Source of the DNA: a virus
Taxonomy: Duplodnaviria; Heunggongvirae; Uroviricota; Caudoviricetes
Direction: 5' to 3' (one strand)
Virus record (IMG/VR): IMGVR_UViG_2563366991_000003
Length of the DNA: 45,681 nucleotides
The notes under the pieces are model-generated. The model was not told the origin of the DNA. It did no database searches and was given only the letters and a program-made list of their open reading frames with translations. This document shows, piece by piece, positions 6,294-45,681 of the stretch. The stretch's first letter is position 1. Each line of letters starts with the position of its first letter. A program made the position numbers and the translations under genes.

Positions 6294-6701
6294 TTTTACA
6301 AATGAACTTTGTTGATGCGGTGCCTGGTGCCTCCAGGTGACTGCAACCAGTTAACAATTACAGTCGGCTTTCCCACCCAAACCAATAAGGACTAACATGA
6401 CTTTTAACTGTGCCGCGTGCGCTTAGCCGCATTCACCGCATCACAAAATTCACTTTAAAAAGGGCGGGCATCAGTCGAACTTCAAGAAAAAACTGATGCC
6501 GCCAAGACTACACATAGCAGTGTTGTTATCCACAACCGGAGGCGCACTCCCACCATTTAAATTTAACAGACAAGACCGACTCTTTATGGATATCGGAAAT
6601 GCGCCTTCGTGTTGTGCCCGGTTTTATTTCACCACCTCCGGGCTTTGGTGGTTTCTGCTATACCCCTACAGCGAGAATATTGAATTAATCCAAATAATGG
6701 A

Positions 6702-7169: not shown

Positions 7170-7235
7170 CTATAGGTAATGCCTAATTGATTGTCAATAG
7201 GCTATGCCTAATGTTTTAAGCGTAACCTAATAGGT
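7170..7235. promoter_or_regulatory. Cluster of TTAGGC / GCCTAA inverted half-sites (OL-like operator region for the leftward early operon)
   Basis: aatgcctaattgattgtcaataggctatgcctaatg...cgtaacctaatagg shares half-sites with the palindromes in the racR-ydaS intergenic region. Confidence 0.35.
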
Positions 7236-7307
7236 GATGGCGACTGGAGAAAGTGATGGGGGGGTTAAATAACGGAATCCAGGAGTTTTCCGTCAGACCA
7301 TATAAGT

Positions 7308-7784
7308 TTAAGTTCCAGTTTTTGTGATGTTCTGGCTTTTCCGTTCAGATTCTAGAGCTTTCAGATACTTACCCACTTTCATTTCCATCGCTGCTATGTA
7401 GGCGCGAACATCGTGGTCAACCCAATCTGGTTCTGTAGCATTTCCAGATAACAGGAAAGCTACAATCGCTCTTATTTCATCAGAGGCTGCTTGATAAAGG
7501 TTGTTTATATCTAAAAGTTCACTTTTTGTATCTGGATTGGTGGGGGTTGGTATGGGGTATTCGTTAAGCCCCCAATGCTCTGGACCAACAACATCAGCAA
7601 AGAAACGCCATAATTCTGGAAGTTTATCTTTACTTATGGAGCCTTTCTTAATCCAGTCATAGATTGATGGTGGTTGGACTTTGAAGTGGCGTGCGACCTC
7701 CGCCTTTGATTTGACGGATCCCGATGCGATTTTTTTGTTAATGGCCTGCTCTATCGCTCGGCCTAAGTCTTTACCACTAAGCAT
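7308..7784 (-). CDS. racR: Prophage repressor RacR (HTH)
   Basis: 158-aa ORF transcribed divergently from ydaS; sequence matches recalled RacR. Confidence 0.85.
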   Translation of the reverse strand: MLSGKDLGRAIEQAINKKIASGSVKSKAEVARHFKVQPPSIYDWIKKGSISKDKLPELWRFFADVVGPEHWGLNEYPIPTPTNPDTKSELLDINNLYQAASDEIRAIVAFLLSGNATEPDWVDHDVRAYIAAMEMKVGKYLKALESERKSQNITKTGT

Positions 7785-8661: not shown

Positions 8662-9519
8662 ATGCTGTTTGTGCTTATTCTAAGCCACCGGGCAGCATCA
8701 TACGGGGCAATTATGGCCGCATTACCATACATGCAACTGTACATAGCTGATTACCTGGCTGACACCATGCATTTGTCAGCAGAGGAGCATGGTGCGTATT
8801 TGTTGCTGATGTTCAATTACTGGCAAACAGGAAAGCCAATACCTAAAAACAGGCTGGCAAAAATTGCCCGTCTGACTAACGAGCGATGGGCTGATGTTGA
8901 ACCATCCTTGCAGGAGTTTTTTTGCGATAACGGCGAGGAATGGGTGCATCTTCGGATTGCGGAAGATCTGGCATCAGTCAGGGAAAAATTAACCAAAAAA
9001 TCAGCCGCAGGAAAAGCATCTGTTCAGGCCAGAAGAAGCAGAAAGGAAGCAGATGTTCAAACAAAACAAGAGAGAAATTTAACAGGTGTTCAAACAGATG
9101 TTGAAGTGGTGTTTGAACATGATGTCAACACAAAGGCAACTAATAAAGATACAGATAAAGATCTAAAAACAGATCCCCCCCTAAATCCCCCCCGGGGGAA
9201 TCGAGGTGTCAAAAAGTTTGACCCTCTGGATATTGCTTTGCCGAACTGGATTTCTGTCTCGCTTTGGCGTGAGTGGGTTGAATTTCGCCAGGCATTGCGA
9301 AAACCGATTCGAACGGAGCAGGGCGCTAACGGGGCGATACGGGAGCTGGAAAAATTCCGCCAGCAGGGTTTTTCACCTGAGCAGGTGATTAGACACAGCA
9401 TCGCCAATGAATACCAGGGCTTGTTCGCGCCGAAAGGTGTTCGACCTGAGACGTTACTCCGACAGGTTAACACCGTCTCGTTACCGGATAGTGCGATCCC
9501 GCCAGGCTTCAGGGGGTAA
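8662..9519 (+). CDS. ydaU: Replication initiation protein YdaU (O-like, DUF1376); alternative start near 8713
   Basis: Position upstream of the DnaC-like gene; sequence MAALPYMQLYIADYLADTMHLSAEEHGAYLLLMFNYW recalled from YdaU. Confidence 0.7.
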   Translation: MLFVLILSHRAASYGAIMAALPYMQLYIADYLADTMHLSAEEHGAYLLLMFNYWQTGKPIPKNRLAKIARLTNERWADVEPSLQEFFCDNGEEWVHLRIAEDLASVREKLTKKSAAGKASVQARRSRKEADVQTKQERNLTGVQTDVEVVFEHDVNTKATNKDTDKDLKTDPPLNPPRGNRGVKKFDPLDIALPNWISVSLWREWVEFRQALRKPIRTEQGANGAIRELEKFRQQGFSPEQVIRHSIANEYQGLFAPKGVRPETLLRQVNTVSLPDSAIPPGFRG

Positions 9520-12851: not shown

Positions 12852-13713
12852 TAACGCAAAAGTTACAAACCCAATGTTAAGAATCCCTTTTTCCAGTAGT
12901 GACTTGGGTGCAATAGTAAACGCTGGCGGTGGGGCAAAGGTATTGGTTGATGTAACAGCCGAATATAGACAAGGGCTAGTAAGAAATTTAACAACCAGTA
13001 AACATTATTTAGAATCCAAACTTTCAGAGTACCCTGGAAGCTTGGGTACTTTGGTTTTCAAATTAAGAGACCAGGGAATAGCCAAAACGCATAGGCCGAA
13101 CAAAATTGCTCAAGAGGCTGGATTGCAAAATGCCGGTCATGCCAAAATAGATGAAATGTTGGTTGCTGCTCATGCCGGCTGTTTTGACGTATTAGAGTCA
13201 GTCATTTTACATCGGAATATTAAAGCGATTTTGGCTAATCTAAGCGCGATTGAGCGCATTGAACCTTGGGATGAGAATAGGAAGGTTCCAGGAGGCACTG
13301 ATGGTTTGTTTGAATCATCAAACATCCTTGTACGACTATTTGAGTACACAGGTGAAGATGCAACTTACAACAACTATGAAAACGTTATTTCTATATTAGA
13401 ACAACACGGAGTTAAATATGATGAGATTAGACAAAAATGTGGTCTTCCCTTATTAAGGATAATGGATTTATCCCCAAATGATAGATATATATTAGACATT
13501 CTCATTGATTACCCGGGTATAAGAACGTTAATTCCTGAACCAAAATATTCAGCATTCCCGGTTAGTGTAAGTGATTCTGTTGGCATTGAAACAAATAGCT
13601 TTCCCGTACCATCAGAAGAATTACCCATTGTTGCTGTATTTGACACTGGGGTAAGCCCCATCGCGGCAACAATTACTCCTTGGGTAGTGAGGGTAATGAC
13701 TCCAACTTATTGA
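12826..13713 (+). pseudogene. S8 subtilisin-like serine protease, N-terminal fragment (IetS-like candidate) ending in IS1
   Basis: Start overlaps the ATPase stop by 26 nt with an AGGAG RBS; contains the catalytic Asp motif AVFDTGV just before the IS1 junction; the last 7 codons read into IS1. Confidence 0.8.
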
Positions 13714-14210
13714 TAGTGTTTTATGTTCAGATAATGCCCGATGACTTTGTCATGCAGCTCCACCGATTTTGAGAACGACAGCGACTTCCGTCCCAGCCGT
13801 GCCAGGTGCTGCCTCAGATTCAGGTTATGCCGCTCAATTCGCTGCGTATATCGCTTGCTGATTACGTGCAGCTTTCCCTTCAGGCGGGATTCATACAGCG
13901 GCCAGCCATCCGTCATCCATATCACCACGTCAAAGGGTGACAGCAGGCTCATAAGACGCCCCAGCGTCGCCATAGTGCGTTCACCGAATACGTGCGCAAC
14001 AACCGTCTTCCGGAGCCTGTCATACGCGTAAAACAGCCAGCGCTGGCGCGATTTAGCCCCGACATAGCCCCACTGTTCGTCCATTTCAGCGCAGACAATC
14101 ACATCACTGCCCGGCTGTATGCGCGAGGTTACCGACTGCGGCCTGAGTTTTTTAAGTGACGTAAAATCGTGTTGAGGCCAACGCCCATAATGCGGGCTGT
14201 TGCCCGGCAT
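13707..14210 (-). CDS. insB: IS1 InsB (made as InsAB' by frameshift)
   Basis: 167-aa ORF overlapping the insA 3' end in another frame, inside IS1. Confidence 0.9.
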
Positions 14211-14404
14211 CCAACGCCATTCATGGCCATATCAATGATTTTCTGGTGCGTACCGGGTTGAGAAGCGGTGTAAGTGAACTGCAGTTGCCATGTTTTACGG
14301 CAGTGAGAGCAGAGATAGCGCTGATGTCCGGCGGTGCTTTTGCCGTTACGCACCACCCCGTCAGTAGCTGAACAGGAGGGACAGCTGATAGAAACAGAAG
14401 CCAC
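14129..14404 (-). CDS. insA: IS1 InsA
   Basis: 91-aa ORF with Cys-rich zinc finger and HTH, inside IS1. Confidence 0.9.
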
Positions 14405-14459
14405 TGGAGCACCTCAAAAACACCATCATACACTAAATCAGTAAGTTGGCAGCATCACC

Positions 14460-18062: not shown

Positions 18063-18138
<76 letters not shown>

Positions 18139-18141
18139 TAT

Positions 18142-18216
<75 letters not shown>

Positions 18217-33600: not shown

Positions 33601-34164
33601 ATGAGGTTATGGATGTTTATTCTTAATCAGAAAATTATCATCGGTGGAGAACGCTGGTTTACGCCAATGAAGGACTTAAAACCTGTAGACGGGTTAAAAC
33701 TGTTGGTGGCAAGCAGCGATAACGATCAGTATCGCTCCCGTAATGCATTAATCCGTCGTCACATTGAGAAAATGGATGCCAGTTTGCACGTCGGAACGAA
33801 GGAGTTTGATATTTCAAAGGTTTCCGAGGTAGATTCTGTTGATGATTTACTCATTGATAATGCTGCTCGTTATCTGCTGAAAGACTGGAAAGGGGTTGGT
33901 GAACTGGTTAATGGTGCTGAGGTTGCACTGGAATATACGCCAGAACGAGGGATCGCGCTGCTTAAGCAGAATCCAGAGTTGTACTGGCAGATCCTTGCAG
34001 AAGCAGCCAGCATCGCCCAGGGTAAAGAGCAGCAGAAGCAGGATACGATAAAAAAGCCATATCCGCCCAGCGGTGGTTATCGGAGTTCGGGGGAGAAAGG
34101 GGGGAAAAGGCAAGATGGAAGCGAGAAAAACTCAGGTTGCCACCGATACCGGAACCAGAAATAG
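33601..34164 (+). CDS. Tail assembly chaperone (lambda gpG-like)
   Basis: Position between the major tail and tape-measure genes; followed by an overlapping -1-frame ORF. Confidence 0.65.
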   Translation: MRLWMFILNQKIIIGGERWFTPMKDLKPVDGLKLLVASSDNDQYRSRNALIRRHIEKMDASLHVGTKEFDISKVSEVDSVDDLLIDNAARYLLKDWKGVGELVNGAEVALEYTPERGIALLKQNPELYWQILAEAASIAQGKEQQKQDTIKKPYPPSGGYRSSGEKGGKRQDGSEKNSGCHRYRNQK

Positions 34165-34370
34165 ACCCGGTGCTTAAGGAATTGTTGTACGCCTATTCGG
34201 TAATATCCCGTGCCCGACGTTATGCTGGAATGACCGGGGTGCCTTTGCCTTTATCTCTGACAGAGATAAATGAATATTTAGCCACTCATCCGGTATTGAT
34301 TGAGCGCGATGAGTTTGAAGCAGTGATCTTTGCACTGGATGACCAGTATTTTCAGGATCAGTGTGTGTAG
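34026..34370 (+). CDS. gpT-like extension of the chaperone, reached by programmed -1 frameshift (G-T fusion)
   Basis: The -1 frame is open from 34026 to 34370 and overlaps the 3' end of the G ORF; G/A-rich slippery tract GGGGGGAAAAGG at 34099-34110. Confidence 0.5.
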   Translation, partial: RAAEAGYDKKAISAQRWLSEFGGERGEKARWKREKLRLPPIPEPEIDPVLKELLYAYSVISRARRYAGMTGVPLPLSLTEINEYLATHPVLIERDEFEAVIFALDDQYFQDQCV

Positions 34371-34533: not shown

Positions 34534-37032
34534 ATGGCAGAGCAAACCTCGCGTCTCGCAATAATTATTGATAGCACTGGAGCAAAAAATAATGCTGACA
34601 ATCTGACCTCCTCATTAGTCAAAATGACGCAGGCCGGGGAAACTGCTGCAAATAGCGCAGGGAAAGTGACTAAGGCAACAGAAGATGAGAAGAACGCGCT
34701 CGCAAAATTAAAAGCAGCTATTGATCCAGTTGGTGCCGCAATTGATACTGTCGGTCGACGCTATTCTGAATTAAAGAAATTTTTCGATAAAGGGCTTATT
34801 GATAAAGAAGAATATGAATTTCTTGTCCGTAAACTTAATGAAACCACAGAGGAATTGAGCGGGGTTGCGCAAGCGCAGAGAGAAGCCGAGAAGGCCGGAA
34901 AACTTGCTGCCGCCCAGCAGGAAGCGCAGGCTCAGGCCTTTCAAAGAATGCTGGACAAGATCGACCCTCTGGCTGCGGCGCTAAGAAATCTTGAACAACA
35001 GCAGGATGAACTTAATGCTGCGTTTGCATCCGGGAAAATAAATGGTTCTCAGTTTGAGAATTATAGCCGAAAAATACAGGAAACACGGCGAGAGCTTACC
35101 GGAGAGGCTCAGGCAGAGCGAGAAGCAGCAAAAGCGCATGATGAACAGGTTGCTGCTTTGCAACGTCTGATTGCTCAACTTGACCCTGTCGGAACTGCTT
35201 TTAATCGTCTGGTAGAACAACAGAAACAGCTCAATGAAGCAAAAGCTAAGGGGATGCTCTCTCCTGAAATGTATGAGGAACTTTCTGGAAAACTTCGTGC
35301 TATGCGGAGTGAGCTTGAGGTTACTCAATCTCAATTAAGCAAAACCGGAATGTCGGCAAAACAAACGGCTTTTGCTATGCGCATGTTGCCTGCACAAATG
35401 ACGGATATTGTTGTTGGGTTGTCCACTGGTCAGTCGCCTTTTATGGTGTTAATGCAGCAGGGCGGCCAGCTAAAAGATATGTTCGGTGGGATTGGCCCGG
35501 CGATCAAAGGTGTTGGTTCTTATGTGCTGGGATTAATTAATCCTTTTACCCTGGCCGCAGCAGCCGTTGGCGTCTTAGGGCTGGCTTACTATAAAGGCTC
35601 TCAGGAGCAGGACGAATTTAATAAATCTCTTATTCTTACCGGAAATCAGTTGGGGACAACCAGCGGGCAATTGGCCGATATAGCTCAACGTGCCGGGAAT
35701 GCGGCTGATTCGACAACTGGCGCTGCGGCGGCAGTATTAAACCAGCTTGTGCGTTCGGGAAAGGTAGCGAGCAGTTCGCTGGAGCAAGTGACGACAGCGA
35801 TAGTAAAAACGAGCGAAGTAACAGGAATATCAACCGAACAACTGGTTAATGACTTCAATGAAATTGCAAAGGATCCTGTCAGTGCCATATCAAAACTTAA
35901 TGATCAGTACCATTTTCTGACAATTGCGACTTATAACCAGATTAAGGCGCTACAGGATGAAGGGAACCAGCAGGAGGCCGCCCGCATTGCGACAGAAGCA
36001 TACTCATCCTCAATGATCCAGCGCACCAACCAGATTAAAGAAAATCTTGGTTATCTTGAGACTGCATGGAAAGCTGTCGCAGACTCCGCAAAATGGGCAT
36101 GGGATTCCATGCTGGACATTGGCCGTGAGGCCTCCCTTGATCAAAAAATCTCAGATGTTCTCCGTCAAATTGATGAAATAGAAAAAAATACCCGACCCGG
36201 AGTTTTCGGGTTAGGTGGCATTGGAGATGGCGGAGCTCAAAATAAAAGGCTGGCACGATTAAAGCAGCAATTGGGCGTACTTCAAGCAGAAAAAATTGCT
36301 CAGGACGTCCTAAATTCATCAATAAACGATTACAACAAGCGACAACAGGAAGGAATTGAACTCAGACAGAGAGCAGATGCCTTTTCAAAACAATATCAGA
36401 CCCGGGAGCAGCAGAGAGCTAGTGAACTTGCAAAACTGGAAAAGCTAAAGAGTCAGTATTCAAAGGAAGAATATAATAATTTTATCGCTCAAATAAATGA
36501 GCGTTATAAAGATCCAAAGCAACCAAAGGCGAAAGGTTATTCGGATGATGCTGCCCAACGAATGATTGATCATCTGAATCAACAGAATGCGTTACTAAGT
36601 TCACAAACTGAATTAACCGTTAAATTAAGTTCCTCTGAACAGGAACTGGTTAAGTGGCGTCAGCAGATTGCCGACCTGGAGTCACGACCGTCATCGAAAT
36701 TAACCCAGGATCAGAAATCGCTTCTCTTACACCGGGAAGAAATAACCGCGTTGATGGAGAAAAATGTTGCGATTGAAAAAAATAACAGGCTAATCAAGGA
36801 ATCCGCCGAAATAGCTGCATGGCGTGATTTATTGCAGGCTTCGATTGATAATCGTCAACAGGGGTATGATATTCAGATTGCTGGTTATGGGGTTGGCGAT
36901 AAAAATCAGCAACGCCAGCAGGAATTACTGCGGATTGAACGTGAATATAACAATCAGCGTCTGCAACTTGAACGTGACTATGCAGATAAATCCCGTGGGA
37001 TGTCAAATCATGTTTTTCAGGAGAAAATGTAG
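34534..37032 (+). CDS. Tail tape-measure protein, N-terminal 832 aa, ending at an in-frame amber TAG (37030-37032)
   Basis: Long coiled-coil protein with a central hydrophobic segment; the same frame stays open past the TAG through 37767. Confidence 0.8.
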
Positions 37033-37767
37033 GCTCTGAATGATGCTCTGGAACGAGAAAAAGAAATTGTCAGACAGAAAAACGAGCAGCTCGATATTCA
37101 GGCAGGAGACTGGGTTAGTGGTGCCTCCCAGGGATTCAATAACTGGCTGGATGACACTAAGGATATCAGTGAGCAGATAAAATCAACCACGACTCAGATG
37201 TTTGATGGAATGACCGATGCGCTGGGTGATTTTGTCACGACAGGCAAGGCAAATTTTCGTTCTTTCGCTACTTCCGTGATTTCGGATCTTAGTCGAATAG
37301 CATTAAAGGCTTCAATTACTGGGATTTTCGACAGCATTAGTAACAGTTCTTCGGGGGGGATTTTAGGAACTATCGGGAGTGCTATTAGTAAATTTATTCC
37401 GAATGCAAAGGGCGGTGTTTATGAGTCTCCGTCATTGAACACGTATTCGAACGGTATTTATGATTCCCCGCAATTTTTTGCTTTTGCAAAAGGGGCTGGT
37501 GTTTTTGGTGAGGCTGGTCCGGAAGCCATTATGCCATTAACACGAACATCCGATGGTTCTCTTGGTGTCAGAGCTATTAATAGTAAAAGTGGTAATGGAG
37601 GCGGAGATATTACCTATGCCCCTGTATACCAAATCACTATTCAAAATGACGGCCAGAATGGAGAGATTGGCCCTCAGGCAATAAAAGCACTTATGGGGAT
37701 GGTTGATCAGCGGGTGCAGGGCAATCTGTTAAATATGCGACGTGATGGGGGAATGTTAAGTGGCTAA
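37033..37767 (+). pseudogene. Tail tape-measure protein, C-terminal portion downstream of the amber codon
   Basis: Codons 37033-37197 are open in the tape-measure frame and continue into the 37198-37767 ORF (Gly-rich C-terminal region). Confidence 0.7.
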
Positions 37768-40150: not shown

Positions 40151-43100
40151 ATGGGTAAAGGCAGCAGTAAGGGGCATATCCCGCGCGAAGCGAAGGACAA
40201 CCTGAAATCATCCCAGATGCTGAGCGTGATAGACGCCATCAGTGAAGGGCCGATTGAAGGTCCGGTGGATGGATTAAAAAGCGTGCTGCTGAACAGTACG
40301 CCGGTGCTGGACAGTGAGGGGAATACCAATATCTCCGGCGTCACGGTGGTGTTCCGGGCAGGTGAGCAGGAGCAGTCACCGCCGGAGGGATTTGAATCCT
40401 CCGGTTCCGAGACGGTGCTGGGTACGGAAGTGAAATATGAAACGCCGATCACCCGGACCATCACGTCGGCAAACATCGACCGTCTGCGCTTTACCTTCGG
40501 TGTACAGGCACTGGTGGAAACCACCTCAAAGGGAGACAGGAATCCGTCGGAAGTCCGCCTGCTGGTTCAGATACAGCGTAACGGTGGCTGGGTGACGGAA
40601 AAAGACATCACCATTAAGGGCAAAACCACCTCGCAGTATCTGGCCTCGGTGGTGGTGGATAACCTGCCGCCGCGCCCGTTCAATATCCGGATGCGCAGGA
40701 TGACGCCGGACAGCACCACAGACCAGCTGCAGAACAAAACGCTCTGGTCGTCATACACCGAGATCATCGATGTGAAACAGTGCTACCCGAACACGGCACT
40801 GGTCGGCGTACAGGTGGACTCGGAGCAGTTCGGCAGCCAGCAGGTGAGCCGTAATTATCATCTTCGCGGGCGCATTCTGCAGGTGCCGTCGAACTATAAC
40901 CCGCAGACGCGACAATACAGCGGTATCTGGGACGGAACGTTAAAACCAGCATACAGCAACAACATGGCCTGGTGTCTGTGGGATATGCTGACCCACCCGC
41001 GCTACGGCATGGGGAAACGTCTTGGTGCGGCGGATGTGGACAAATGGGCGCTGTATGTCATCGGCCAGTACTGCGACCAGTCAGTGCCGGACGGCTTTGG
41101 CGGCACGGAGCCGCGCATCACCTGTAATGCGTACCTGACCACACAGCGCAAGGCGTGGGATGTGCTCAGTGATTTCTGCTCGGCGATGCGCTGTATGCCG
41201 GTATGGAACGGGCAGACGCTGACGTTCGTGCAGGACCGACAGTCGGATAAGGTGTGGACCTATAACCGCAGTAATGTGGTGATGCCGGATGATGGCGCGC
41301 CGTTCCGCTACAGCTTCAGCGCCCTGAAGGACCGCCATAATGCCGTTGAGGTGAACTGGATTGACCCGAACAACGGCTGGGAGACGGCGACAGAGCTTGT
41401 TGAAGATACGCAGGCCATTGCCCGTTACGGTCGTAATGTCACGAAGATGGATGCCTTTGGCTGTACCAGCCGGGGGCAGGCACACCGCGCCGGGCTGTGG
41501 CTGATTAAAACGGAACTGCTGGAAACGCAGACCGTGGATTTCAGCGTGGGCGCAGAAGGGCTTCGCCATGTGCCGGGCGATGTTATTGAAATCTGCGATG
41601 ATGACTATGCCGGTATCAGCACCGGTGGTCGCGTGTTGGCGGTGAACAGCCAGACCCGGACGCTGACGCTCGACCGTGAAATCACGCTGCCATCCTCCGG
41701 TACCACGCTGATAAGCCTGGTTGACGGAAGTGGCAATCCGGTCAGCGTGGAGGTTCAGTCCGTCACCGACGGACTTAAGGTGAAAGTGAATCGGGTTCCT
41801 GACGGCGTTGCAGAATACAGTGTGTGGGGGCTGAAGTTGCCGACGTTGCGTCAGCGCCTGTTCCGCTGTGTGAGTATCCGTGAGAACGATGACGGCACGT
41901 ATGCCATCACTGCCGTGCAGCATGTACCGGAAAAAGAAGCCATCGTGGATAACGGGGCGCACTTTGACGGCGACCAGAGCGGCACGGTGAATGGTGTCAC
42001 GCCGCCAGCGGTGCAGCACCTGACCGCCGAAGTCACCGCAGACAGCGGGGAATACCAGGTGCTGGCGCGCTGGGATACGCCGAAGGTGGTGAAGGGCGTG
42101 AGCTTTATGCTTCGCCTGACCGTGGCAGCGGATGACGGCAGTGAGCGGCTGGTCAGCACGGCCCGGACGACGGAAACCACATACCGCTTCACGCAACTGG
42201 CGCCAGGGAACTACAGGCTGACAGTCCGGGCGGCAAATGCCTGGGGGCAGCAGGGCGATCCGGCATCGGTATCGTTCCGTATTGCCGCACCGGCAGCGCC
42301 GTCGCGGATTGAGCTGACGCCGGGCTATTTTCAGATAACCGCCACGCCCCATCTTGCCGTTTATGATCCGACGGTACAGTTTGAGTTCTGGTTCTCGGAA
42401 AAGCGGATTGCGGATATCAGGCAGGTTGAAACCACAGCCCGCTATCTTGGCACGGCGCTGTACTGGATAGCTGCCAGTATCAATATCAAACCGGGCCATG
42501 ATTATTATTTTTACATCCGCAGTGTGAACACCGTTGGCAAATCGGCATTTGTGGAGGCTGTTGGCCAGCCGAGTGATGATGCATCCGGCTATCTGGATTT
42601 TTTCAAAGGCGAGATAGGGAAAAGCCATCTGGCTCAGGAGCTGTGGACGCAGATTGATAACGGTCAGCTTGCGCCTGACCTGGCTGAAATCAGGACGTCC
42701 ATTACGGATGTCAGCAATGAAATCACGCAGACCGTCAATAAGAAACTGGAAGACCAGAGTGCGGCGATCCAGCAGATACAGAAGGTTCAGGTTGATACAA
42801 ATAATAACCTGAACAGCATGTGGGCTGTGAAGCTGCAGCAGATGCAGGACGGACGCCTTTATATCGCGGGTATTGGTGCCGGTATTGAGAACACCCCTGA
42901 CGGCATGCAGAGTCAGGTGCTGCTGGCGGCGGACAGGATTGCGATGGTTAATCCTGCGAATGGCAACACAAAGCCGATGTTTGTTGGTCAGGGCGATCAG
43001 ATATTCATGAACGAAGTGTTCCTGAAACGCCTGACGGCTCCCACCATTACCAGCGGCGGTAATCCTCCGGCATTTTCCCTGACACCGGACGGGCGGCTGA

Positions 43101-43697: not shown

Positions 43698-44297
43698 ATG
43701 CGTAAATTATGTGCTGTTATTCTGTCCACAGTAGTCTGGCTGGTCGCCGCTGGTACGCCAGCGAGCGCAGCAGAGCATCAGTCCACACTAAGCGCCGGGT
43801 ATCTTCAGACCCATACTGATATGCCCGGCAACGATGACCTGAAGGGCATTAACGTGAAATACCGTTATGAATTTACGGACACGCTGGGGCTGGTGACGTC
43901 ATTCAGTTATGCCAAAGACAAAAATCAGCAAAAAACGCATTACAGCGATACCCGCTGGCATGAAGATTCAGTGCGTAACCGCTGGTTCAGCATGATGGCG
44001 GGGCCGTCTGTACGCGTGAATGAATGGTTCAGTGCTTATGCGATGGCAGGTGTGGCTTACAGCCGTGTTTCGACGTTCTCCGGGGATTATCTCCGCGTAA
44101 CTGACAACAAGGGGAAAACGCACGATGTGCTGACCGGAAGTGATGACGATCGCCACAGCAACACGTCTCTGGCGTGGGGAGCTGGCGTGCAGTTTAACCC
44201 GACCGAATCCGTGGCCATTGATATTGCTTATGAAGGCTCCGGCAGTGGCGACTGGCGCACTGACGGTTTCATCGTGGGTGTCGGTTATAAATTCTGA
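43698..44297 (+). CDS. lom: Lom outer-membrane protein (Ail/Lom family)
   Basis: Signal peptide MRKLCAVILSTVVWLVAAGTPASA; beta-barrel with C-terminal ...GYKF. Confidence 0.85.
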   Translation: MRKLCAVILSTVVWLVAAGTPASAAEHQSTLSAGYLQTHTDMPGNDDLKGINVKYRYEFTDTLGLVTSFSYAKDKNQQKTHYSDTRWHEDSVRNRWFSMMAGPSVRVNEWFSAYAMAGVAYSRVSTFSGDYLRVTDNKGKTHDVLTGSDDDRHSNTSLAWGAGVQFNPTESVAIDIAYEGSGSGDWRTDGFIVGVGYKF

Positions 44298-44361: not shown

Positions 44362-45681
44362 ATGGCAGCAGTAAAAATCTCAGGTGTGCTGAAAGATGGT
44401 GCGGGAAAACCAATACAGAACTGCACTATTCAACTGAAGGCAAAGCGTAACAGCACCACTGTACTGGTGAACACGGTGGCCTCTGAAAATCCGGATGAAG
44501 CCGGGCGTTACAGCATGGACGTTGAGTATGGCCAGTATAGCGTTATCCTGCTGGTTGAAGGTTTTCCGCCTTCACATGCCGGGATCATTACCGTCTATGA
44601 AGGTTCCAGACCAGGTACGCTGAATGATTTTCTCGGTGCCATGACGGAAGATGATGTCATGCCGGAGGCATTGCGTCGTTTTGAGGCAATGGTGGAAGAA
44701 GCGGCACGCAACGCCGAAGCCGCCTCTCAGAGCGCAGCGGTGGCAAAGAAATCCGAAACTGCAGCGGCATCATCGAAGAACGCGGCGAAAACCTCAGAAA
44801 CGAATGCAGCTAACAGCGCACAGGCGGCAGCGTCCTCGCAGACTGCATCGGCAAACTCCGCGACAGCAGCCAAAAAATCAGAAACCAACGCGAAAAACAG
44901 CGAGACAGCCGCAAAGACGAGCGAAACCAACGCAAAGTCCAGCCAGACGGCAGCGAAAACCAGCGAAACGAATGCCAAAGCCAGTGAAACTGCGGCGAAA
45001 AATAGCCAGGCTGCAGCAGCTGAAAGCGAGAGCGCAGCAGCCGGTTCTGCGACTTCAGCAGCTGGATCAGCAACTGCTGCGGCTAACAGCCAGAAAGCTG
45101 CGAAGACGAGTGAAACTAACGCAAAGTCCAGCCAGACGGCAGCGAAGACCAGCGAAACGAATGCCAAAGCCAGTGAAACTGCGGCGAAAAGCAGTCAGGA
45201 TGCAGCGGCCCAAAGCGAGAGTGCCGCAGCCAGTTCTGCAAGCGCGGCGGCTGCTTCTGCCACTGCATCAGCTAACAGTCAAAAAGCAGCAAAAACCAGT
45301 GAAACCAACGCAAAGGTGAGCGAAACAGCGGCTGCGAACTCAGCGAAAGCATCGGCAGCAAGCCAGACGGCAGCTAAAGCAAGCGAAGATGCAGCCAGAG
45401 AGTACGCAAGCCAGGCTGCGGAGCCGTATAAATATGTCTTACAGCCGCTGCCTGATGTGTGGATACCATTTAACGATTCGCTGGATATGATTACGGGCTT
45501 TTCGCCATCATATAAAAAAATTGTTATTGGTGACGATGAAATAACGATGCCTGGCGACAAGATTGTTAAGTTTAAACGTGCATCGAAAGCAACCTATATT
45601 AACAAATCTGGTGTGCTGACAGAGGCTGCCATTGACGAGCCACGATTTGAACGTGATGGCCTGCTTATTGAGGGGCAAAGA
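44362..45681 (+). CDS. Side tail fibre protein (lambda Stf-like), 3'-truncated by the window end
   Basis: ATG at 44362 then a 440-codon open frame to the window end; N-terminus MAAVKISGVLKDGAGKPIQNCTIQLKAK and TSETNAK-type Ala/Ser/Thr repeats. Absent from the ORF track because no stop falls inside the window. Confidence 0.8.
   Translation, partial: MAAVKISGVLKDGAGKPIQNCTIQLKAKRNSTTVLVNTVASENPDEAGRYSMDVEYGQYSVILLVEGFPPSHAGIITVYEGSRPGTLNDFLGAMTEDDVMPEALRRFEAMVEEAARNAEAASQSAAVAKKSETAAASSKNAAKTSETNAANSAQAAASSQTASANSATAAKKSETNAKNSETAAKTSETNAKSSQTAAKTSETNAKASETAAKNSQAAAAESESAAAGSATSAAGSATAAANSQKAAKTSETNAKSSQTAAKTSETNAKASETAAKSSQDAAAQSESAAASSASAAAASATASANSQKAAKTSETNAKVSETAAANSAKASAASQTAAKASEDAAREYASQAAEPYKYVLQPLPDVWIPFNDSLDMITGFSPSYKKIVIGDDEITMPGDKIVKFKRASKATYINKSGVLTEAAIDEPRFERDGLLIEGQR

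Follow-up and report, generated by a model that had tools for sequence, protein, structure and literature searches.

A single C-to-T nonsense change in a Rac-like Escherichia coli prophage interrupts the gene for its tail tape measure

A nonsense mutation in H, the tape-measure gene, gives the textbook tail-defective mutant of phage lambda, and the Rac prophage of E. coli K-12 has lost most of its structural genes. In the lambda tail, residues 818-849 of gpH have been resolved bound to gpI (PMC12617516). In this study, we analysed a stretch of 45,681 nucleotides (the window; IMG/VR record IMGVR_UViG_2563366991_000003), a Rac-like lambdoid prophage of full length that is inserted beside ttcA and in which a gene for a lambda gpH-like tape measure is divided by an in-frame amber codon. 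We conclude that the gene carries a single C-to-T nonsense change and that this is ordinary prophage decay, with no suppressor-dependent or recoded translation. That the gene is a pseudogene with an internal stop is already known through RefSeq/PGAP. The window aligns at 99.8-100% to positions 121444-166470 of NZ_CP026723.1, where PGAP labels C4R22_RS00845 as 'phage tail tape measure protein', pseudogene, 'internal stop'; the sequence of that gene is identical to the window's, and PGAP's conclusion is the same as ours.

The interrupted tape-measure gene

The tape-measure gene (34534..37767, + strand; 1077 codons by open reading frame and translation) begins with an ATG at 34534 and ends with a TGA at 37765-37767. 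A frame scan found a sole in-frame stop ahead of this TGA, the TAG at 37030-37032, with 832 sense codons before it and 244 after, and the frame is indeed open on both sides of the amber codon, as a sequence-only reading of the window had proposed. Upstream of the TAG, the still-translated N-terminal fragment of 832 aa (34534..37029, +) contains the Pfam domains TMP_2 (PF06791; aa 267-471, 35332-35946, +, E 1.1e-81) and TMP_4 (aa 671-748, 36544-36777, +). The C-terminal 244 codons plus TGA (37033..37767, +), now untranslated, hold the lambda-type C-terminal domain Tape_meas_lam_C (PF09718; aa 858-932, 37105..37329, +), found with an E value of 3.9e-26 in the intact protein and of 2.4e-27 when the part downstream of the TAG was searched alone, as well as a glycine-rich stretch and a conserved extreme C-terminus. 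On the profile of phrog_24 (1151 positions), the upstream part occupies positions 127-814 (E 5.8e-257) and the downstream part directly continues it at positions 817-1053; the downstream part also matches phrog_1716 (E 4.9e-93). Of the original description of some 245 downstream codons as coiled-coil tape-measure sequence, the tape-measure identity stands, but the sequence is not simply coiled coil.

The open frame 3' of the TAG is not a chance occurrence, since none of 20,000 shuffles remained open, base composition gives such a frame a probability of about 1.5e-7, and there are 12 and 23 stops in the other two frames over the same part. With a TAG at codon 833, the locus lacks the uninterrupted frame of the gpH family and is therefore a pseudogene of that family and no functional member of it. 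No Shine-Dalgarno-like sequence lies in front of the ATG at 37198, which marks the '189-aa ORF' that begins there as an ORF-calling artefact. The idea that reinitiation at 37198 could supply a working C-terminal protein was also considered, and was rejected on the grounds that there is no ribosome-binding site and that a detached C-terminus cannot serve as a ruler.

Origin and spread of the amber allele, and other lesions

Intact alleles are present in 19A14 (L003) and strain 144 (L014), where a single base differs across 3234 nt, a C at 37030, and where the gene encodes an intact 1077-aa protein (WP_016231723.1). Codon 833 is CAG in L003, L004 and L014. The alleles of 19A14 and strain 144 differ from that of the window at 37030 only, and this comparison of sequences shows TAG to be the derived state and CAG (Gln) the ancestral one. 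The amber codon (37030..37032, +) arose from Gln833 via a C-to-T transition at 37030, which names the replaced sense codon that the first reading had proposed to identify by alignment. Across 44.9 kb, 16 SNPs and an IS1 element separate the whole prophage of 19A14 from the window.

Among the 5426 genomes of the E. coli genome collection, 727 carry the tape-measure gene. A search with a 63-nt stretch found the exact TAG allele in 32 independent complete E. coli genomes, and a further 344 genomes match the same stretch with 1-3 mismatches, with CAG in every one inspected. TAG is also present in two prophage records that were inspected and that had been excised from Illumina drafts, and three more prophage records share the two-CDS annotation of these two. 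The stop codon is not conserved among relatives, as a recoding signal would be (TAG in the 32 genomes, CAG in the inspected non-exact matches). TAG carriers fall within one chromosomal clade: a 12-kb chromosomal locus of 15.TR.026_OXA is matched with perfect identity in at least 23 of the 32, and just 111 of the 5426 genomes reach 99% identity to it. The clade also contains the intact allele, as strain 144 has the chromosomal locus of the carriers yet CAG at codon 833, and comparison of the 12-kb locus gave no sign of the TAG allele beyond this clade. Three of the 32 carriers, 266917_2, 28Eco12 and NMBU_W05E18, have a sequence type taken from the literature, and all three are ST38 in published papers. 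The TAG offers a clean single-base marker for a sublineage of this clinically important clone.

Two further lesions were found in the window. An IS1 element of 768 bp (13692..14459), with a 9-bp target duplication (GGTAGTGAG), lies inside the cargo defence gene iteS, confirming the insertion noticed earlier; it interrupts no phage morphogenesis gene and is missing from the near-identical prophages L002 and L013. The second lesion affects the tail assembly chaperone genes G/GT (33601..34370, +; annotated as ydaY and a 'hypothetical' gene), which contain a -1 slippery site, A AAA AAG, at 34050-34056 and whose conceptual -1 frameshift product GT matches phrog_313 'tail assembly chaperone' (E 5.4e-47). 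In the window, the stop of chaperone G at 34060-34062 has mutated and reads TAT in place of TAG, and this stop-loss is private to it (0/1067 genomes with that segment). The strain of the window has both lesions, whereas NZ_CP026723.1 has neither. The lineage-private changes in TAG-bearing copies, namely A61V and A761S (two draft-derived copies) and the G stop-loss (the window), all alter a protein, and on these n=3 substitutions the tail module shows signs of relaxed constraint. The earlier suspicion that the prophage is decaying is borne out by the change from CAG to TAG, the IS1 in iteS, the G stop-loss and the pseudogene label given by PGAP.

Consequences for tail assembly and alternative explanations

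The intact tape measure aligns to lambda gpH (8iyk_H) over residues 268-1077 versus 55-850 (E 1.2e-70), an alignment that runs to residue 850 of 853, and its extreme C-terminus (aa 1043-1077; 37660..37764, +) aligns to gpH 816-850. The truncated product is without the last 245 residues, which comprise Tape_meas_lam_C, the glycine-rich region and a terminal segment of ~35 residues; that the tape measure would lack its C-terminal region was rightly foreseen, as both Tape_meas_lam_C and the conserved extreme C-terminus are encoded 3' of the TAG and hence are unexpressed. By alignment, the lost final ~35 residues are the counterpart of the segment with which lambda gpH binds gpI in the tail tip. 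Because the lost part includes this counterpart as well as Tape_meas_lam_C, tail assembly should fail.

We consider it very likely that the TAG arose recently, as a nonsense mutation that cost a structural gene of the prophage its function. Under this explanation, release factor 1, the reader of UAG, would end translation at codon 833 and leave the 832-aa fragment. Since lambda tails start from a tip complex that holds the C-terminus of the tape measure, a tape measure truncated in this way would be unable to nucleate tails by analogy, and we infer that tails are not made; the prophage would then make no infectious particles, with its other modules looking intact. The mutation would have arisen inside the ST38 chromosomal lineage and been passed on vertically, and relaxed selection on the tail module would have let lesions pile up, such as the G stop-loss and the IS1 in iteS of the window.

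A preprint reports a siphovirus-shaped particle, seen by electron microscopy, in a mitomycin-C lysate of the isolate Eco_611, which harbours a TAG-bearing copy. This counts against a nonfunctional tail, though the lysate came from a polylysogen and was mixed, and the particle was attributed to no prophage. The 'vB_EcoS-...' records were considered as sequenced virions, which would have pointed to a working phage, a reading that we rejected, as the preprint shows them to be PHASTER predictions cut from draft genomes. This is a caution for prophage-prediction tools, given that copies with the TAG were scored 'intact' by PHASTER and were deposited in GenBank as genomes of phages whose tape measure is divided between two genes.

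One alternative, which we regard as unlikely, is that the amber codon is leaky, with near-cognate tRNA-Gln(CUG) reading UAG at a low level and the inserted Gln restoring the wild-type protein and a small residual infectivity, on the premise that a few tape-measure copies per tail suffice. tRNA-Gln naturally reads UAG as a near-cognate codon, and as the lost codon is CAG, the Gln so inserted would give back the ancestral sequence. This alternative would also accommodate the unattributed particle in the lysate of one carrier isolate, and the morphogenesis genes of 266917_2, which are without pseudogene flags, the TAG gene excepted. However, wild-type E. coli normally reads through UAG at a basal level far below 1%, and full-length copies would still have to compete with abundant truncated fragment for the G/GT chaperones. 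Nor is there any sign of spread beyond the one chromosomal clade, and chaperone G of the window later lost its stop, which speaks for a module no longer under selection. That the Rac-like prophage of the pandemic ST38 clone is naturally attenuated and not dead, yielding rare infectious or transducing particles through a leaky amber codon, is in our view a shade less likely still.

It is highly improbable that an amber suppressor tRNA of the host or the prophage yields a full-length tape measure. Nothing positive points to one, although a change from CAG to TAG is of the class that supE would correct exactly. The tRNAs of the prophage, Thr(tgt) and Gly(tcc), are not suppressors, the anticodons of glnV, glnX, glnU and glnW are all wild type in the carrier NZ_CP032145.1, and the 12-kb locus that holds the Gln tRNA genes is identical in at least 23 of the 32 carriers, so that glnV and glnX are wild type there too. 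Across the 5426 genomes, the supF allele was found in none and the supD allele in a single unrelated laboratory strain, DSM 498, while the exact supE allele is present in 155 genomes, the best 60 of which are laboratory derivatives of K-12. The check covered alleles of glnV/X, glnU/W, serU and tyrT/V, and no UAG-decoding tRNA was found among the prophage tRNAs, the Gln tRNA genes and the supF and supD alleles, where the initial suggestion of a suppressor host thus finds no support. A suppressor would also damage chaperone G of the same operon, since G normally ends in TAG.

The last alternative, that the TAG reflects an error in sequencing or assembly or that the two ORFs are naturally separate genes, as the automatic annotation of two separate 'tape-measure protein H' genes in five PHASTER-derived phage records would have it, has practically no chance of being right and is already refuted by genome data: the same base occurs in 32 independently sequenced complete genomes and the two inspected draft-derived records, homologues do not end naturally at the TAG with a separate gene downstream but form one uninterrupted 3234-nt gene in hundreds of genomes, the downstream ORF is without a ribosome-binding site, and the two halves are collinear on both phrog_24 and lambda gpH.

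Comparison with lambda, Rac and grounded prophages

A recent loss of function, our preferred explanation, places the locus close to well-described systems. The tape measure shares its Pfam C-terminal domain with lambda gpH (PDB 8IYK chain H) and is homologous to it over residues 268-1077. In the annotation of near-identical records, the gene is flanked by the G/GT chaperone genes on one side and by the tail-tip genes M, L, K, I and J on the other, the gene after it matches Pfam Phage_min_tail, and the order of chaperone G/GT, H, M, L, K, I, J and lom is the same as in lambda. The prophage protein differs from gpH in its length (1077 versus 853 aa), with an extra N-terminal coiled-coil region of ~210 residues, and its gene differs from that of lambda in lying within a Rac-type prophage whose capsid gene is P22-like. 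Whereas the H amber mutants of lambda belong to the laboratory and a suppressor host, the amber codon described here arose naturally and has become fixed in a wild clone.

The window also resembles the Rac prophage of E. coli K-12, with which it has in common the ttcA integration site and the genes of the early region; the annotation of NZ_CP026723.1 shows the ttcA site, intR-xisR-ralR-recET-kilR-racR-ydaSTUV and trkG. Unlike K-12 Rac, the copy in the window keeps a complete set of head and tail genes, according to annotation. The stop codon itself reveals no new biology; its interest lies in a Rac-type prophage caught at the first step of decay. The prophage resembles the grounded defective prophages in that point mutations and IS elements disable it and its cargo genes are kept, but compared with these it is early in decay, with one nonsense codon as its main lesion.

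An in-frame amber codon in the tape-measure gene

The tape-measure gene of this Rac-like prophage (34534-37767, plus strand) opens with an ATG at 34534 and is interrupted, after 832 codons, by a TAG (37030-37032; plus strand, in frame with that ATG), beyond which 244 further open codons lead to a TGA at 37765-37767; the TAG is the sole in-frame stop in 3234 nt. Past the TAG, the frame stays open far longer than chance would allow: the 732 nt downstream were shuffled 20,000 times and never remained open, the composition-based expectation is approximately 1.5e-7, and the alternative two frames contain 12 and 23 stops. The frame, the stop count and the shuffles thus bear out the interrupted gene that the sequence-only reading had described, at the same coordinates.

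That reading left it to alignment to identify which sense codon the TAG replaces, and near-identical intact alleles identify it as CAG (Gln). An uninterrupted 1077-aa protein (WP_016231723.1) is encoded by strains 19A14 (NZ_CP147046.1) and 144 (NZ_CP023364.1), in which the gene differs from that of the window at a single base, 37030, with C in place of T. The third intact allele, in strain 190, has eight differences from the window gene and likewise carries CAG. Across 44.9 kb, 16 substitutions and an IS1 are all that separate the whole 19A14 prophage from the window, so that the intact ancestor is essentially available. Of 5426 complete E. coli genomes, 727 carry the gene, as judged with a 1401-nt probe. 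With the TAG at the centre of a 63-nt probe, 32 genomes matched exactly and 344 more with one to three mismatches, CAG being present in every inspected non-exact match. Two tape-measure CDSs are annotated in each of five 'phage' entries in GenBank (ON470581, ON470585, ON470587, ON470595 and ON470602) that derive from carbapenemase-producing isolates from the UK, and the two entries that we inspected both contain the TAG and a 2499-nt plus 570-nt split. According to the associated preprint, these records do not represent sequenced virions; PHASTER predicted them, and they were excised from draft assemblies of Illumina reads. PHASTER scored the TAG-bearing fragments 'intact', and their deposition as phage genomes with a split tape measure could mislead users of phage databases.

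Comparison of these alleles indicates that the TAG is a real, derived and clonally inherited nonsense mutation that has turned the tape-measure gene into a pseudogene. Neither explanation that would have undone the sequence-only reading holds. Assembly error is excluded by the TAG in 32 complete genomes and in the inspected draft-derived records. A natural two-gene arrangement, with homologues ending at the TAG, is excluded by the uninterrupted gene in relatives, by the collinearity of the two fragments on a single PHROG profile (phrog_24; 127-814 upstream of the TAG and 817-1053 downstream), and by the lack of a ribosome-binding site at ATG 37198, where ORF callers begin a '189-aa protein'.

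Prophage decay within a clonal lineage

The window aligns at 99.8-100% with E. coli 266917_2 (NZ_CP026723.1), where the annotation of the matching region describes a prophage of Rac type adjoining ttcA. The annotated early genes are intR, xisR, ralR, recT, recE, kilR, racR and ydaS/T/U/V; also annotated are the anti-phage pair iteA/iteS, trkG, lysis genes and two tRNA genes, together with terminase and portal genes, a capsid gene of P22 type and a tail of lambda type. Near kilR, 266917_2 has approximately 122 extra bases, apparently a tandem duplication, with the 126-nt window stretch 6555-6680 matching two adjacent places (7209-7456 in the 266917_2 region, L002); the window and 19A14 are single copy. 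The tail-fibre gene, J and lom hold clusters of substitutions relative to 266917_2 (41069-41241, 43907-43937 and 44460-45036); the pattern resembles patchwise recombination in the host-range module, not scattered point mutation. Overlapping direct repeats of approximately 231 bp (44896-45126 and 45085-45315; approximately 84% identity, offset 189 bp) in the tail-fibre N-terminal gene point to an internally repeated module.

As a chromosomal marker we used the 12-kb locus from lnt to nagD of the TAG carrier 15.TR.026_OXA. This locus is matched perfectly in at least 60 genomes, including at least 23 of the 32 carriers among the matches listed, and only 111 of the 5426 genomes reach even 99% identity. 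Carriers 266917_2 and 28Eco12 (PMC6963479) and NMBU_W05E18 (PMC7311804) are published as sequence type ST38 and differ in serotype, and one further carrier record is named simply 'ST38'. Strain 144 has the perfect locus, yet an intact tape-measure allele. The simplest reading of these sequences is a single mutation within the ST38 lineage, followed by vertical inheritance.

Of the two alternatives offered by the sequence-only reading, a decaying prophage proved right, given the change from CAG to TAG, the PGAP label of the gene in 266917_2 (pseudogene, 'internal stop') and two further lesions. The first is a 768-bp IS1 (13692-14459; 9-bp target duplication GGTAGTGAG) inside iteS, the S8-peptidase partner of IteAS, an anti-phage system that the prophage carries; the near-identical prophages of 266917_2 and 19A14 lack this insertion. 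The second affects the G/GT pair of tail assembly chaperone genes (33601-34370), which the annotation lists as 'ydaY' and 'hypothetical protein': one codon ahead of the G stop and in the correct register lies a dnaX-type -1 slippery heptamer, A AAA AAG (34050-34056), and the conceptual frameshift product matches phrog_313 (tail assembly chaperone) along its length (E 5e-47). The G stop codon (34060-34062) is TAT in the window versus TAG in all relatives, which adds 34 aa to G (to 34164) and alters Ala to Ser in GT. This stop-loss was found in none of the 1067 genomes with the segment, and is private to the window's strain. Two draft-derived TAG copies each have one private tape-measure substitution, both non-synonymous (A61V and A761S); together with the stop-loss, these small numbers fit relaxed selection on an already broken tail module. 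Separately, ydaU (DUF1376 family; 8662-9519) is intact in the window at 285 aa and flagged as frameshifted in 266917_2 (L002 9438-10296), where the aligned block contains a gap of one base. Secondary lesions appear to be accumulating in the TAG lineage, and to differ between its members. This is ordinary prophage decay, already annotated as such in RefSeq.

Readthrough and suppression of the amber codon

Since the replaced codon is Gln, low-level readthrough of a leaky amber by near-cognate tRNA-Gln would regenerate the ancestral tape measure exactly. A preprint describes a siphovirus-shaped particle in a mitomycin-C lysate of the TAG carrier Eco_611, a polylysogen in which the particle was not attributed to any prophage. 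We consider functional rescue of this kind very improbable, and favour loss of the gene's function.

The second alternative of the sequence-only reading, an amber suppressor in the host, is not supported by the tRNA genes and alleles that the comparison covered: the prophage tRNAs, the Gln tRNAs, supE, supF and supD. The two adjacent prophage tRNA genes upstream of the lysis genes (18063-18216) are Thr(tgt) and Gly(tcc), neither of them a suppressor. All four Gln tRNA genes of carrier NZ_CP032145.1 are wild type, the two with anticodon ctg (glnV and glnX) as well as the two with ttg, and because the Gln tRNA genes lie inside the identical 12-kb locus, they are wild type in at least 23 carriers too. 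The supF allele occurred in 0 of 5426 genomes, every genome being one mismatch away, which validates the probe; among the same genomes, the supD probe matched DSM 498 only. A supE-anticodon probe was exact in 155 genomes, and all 60 matches listed are K-12 laboratory derivatives, which served as a positive control for the allele-probe method. An efficient amber suppressor would also damage the chaperone G product, because G normally ends in TAG. No annotated feature underlies the supE and supD matches (glnV with CUA in K-12 strains, serU with CUA in DSM 498); RefSeq annotation apparently omits suppressor tRNAs, and is therefore unusable to rule them out.

The truncated protein and the lambda tail

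With the TAG read through, domain matches and an alignment to lambda gpH identify the protein as a lambda-gpH-type tail tape measure. Pfam places TMP_2 at aa 267-471 (E 1e-81), TMP_4 at aa 671-748 and Tape_meas_lam_C at aa 858-932 (E 4e-26), and residues 268-1077 align with 55-850 of the 853 residues of the lambda tape measure (PDB 8IYK; E 1.2e-70). In the alignment with lambda gpH, codon 833 lies where the coiled-coil ruler is poorly conserved, so that the Gln as such is probably not critical. Missing from the truncated product are residues 833-1077, including Tape_meas_lam_C and, at the very end, approximately 35 residues aligned with lambda gpH 816-850; gpH residues 818-849 have been resolved in contact with gpI of the lambda tail tip (PMC12617516).

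Classical lambda H amber mutants are tail-less. By analogy with these mutants and with lambda tail assembly, the initiator complex should be unable to hold the truncated fragment, and no tails are expected to form. The gene order around the tape measure is lambda-like, with a G/GT-type chaperone pair upstream and homologues of M, L, K, I, J and lom downstream.
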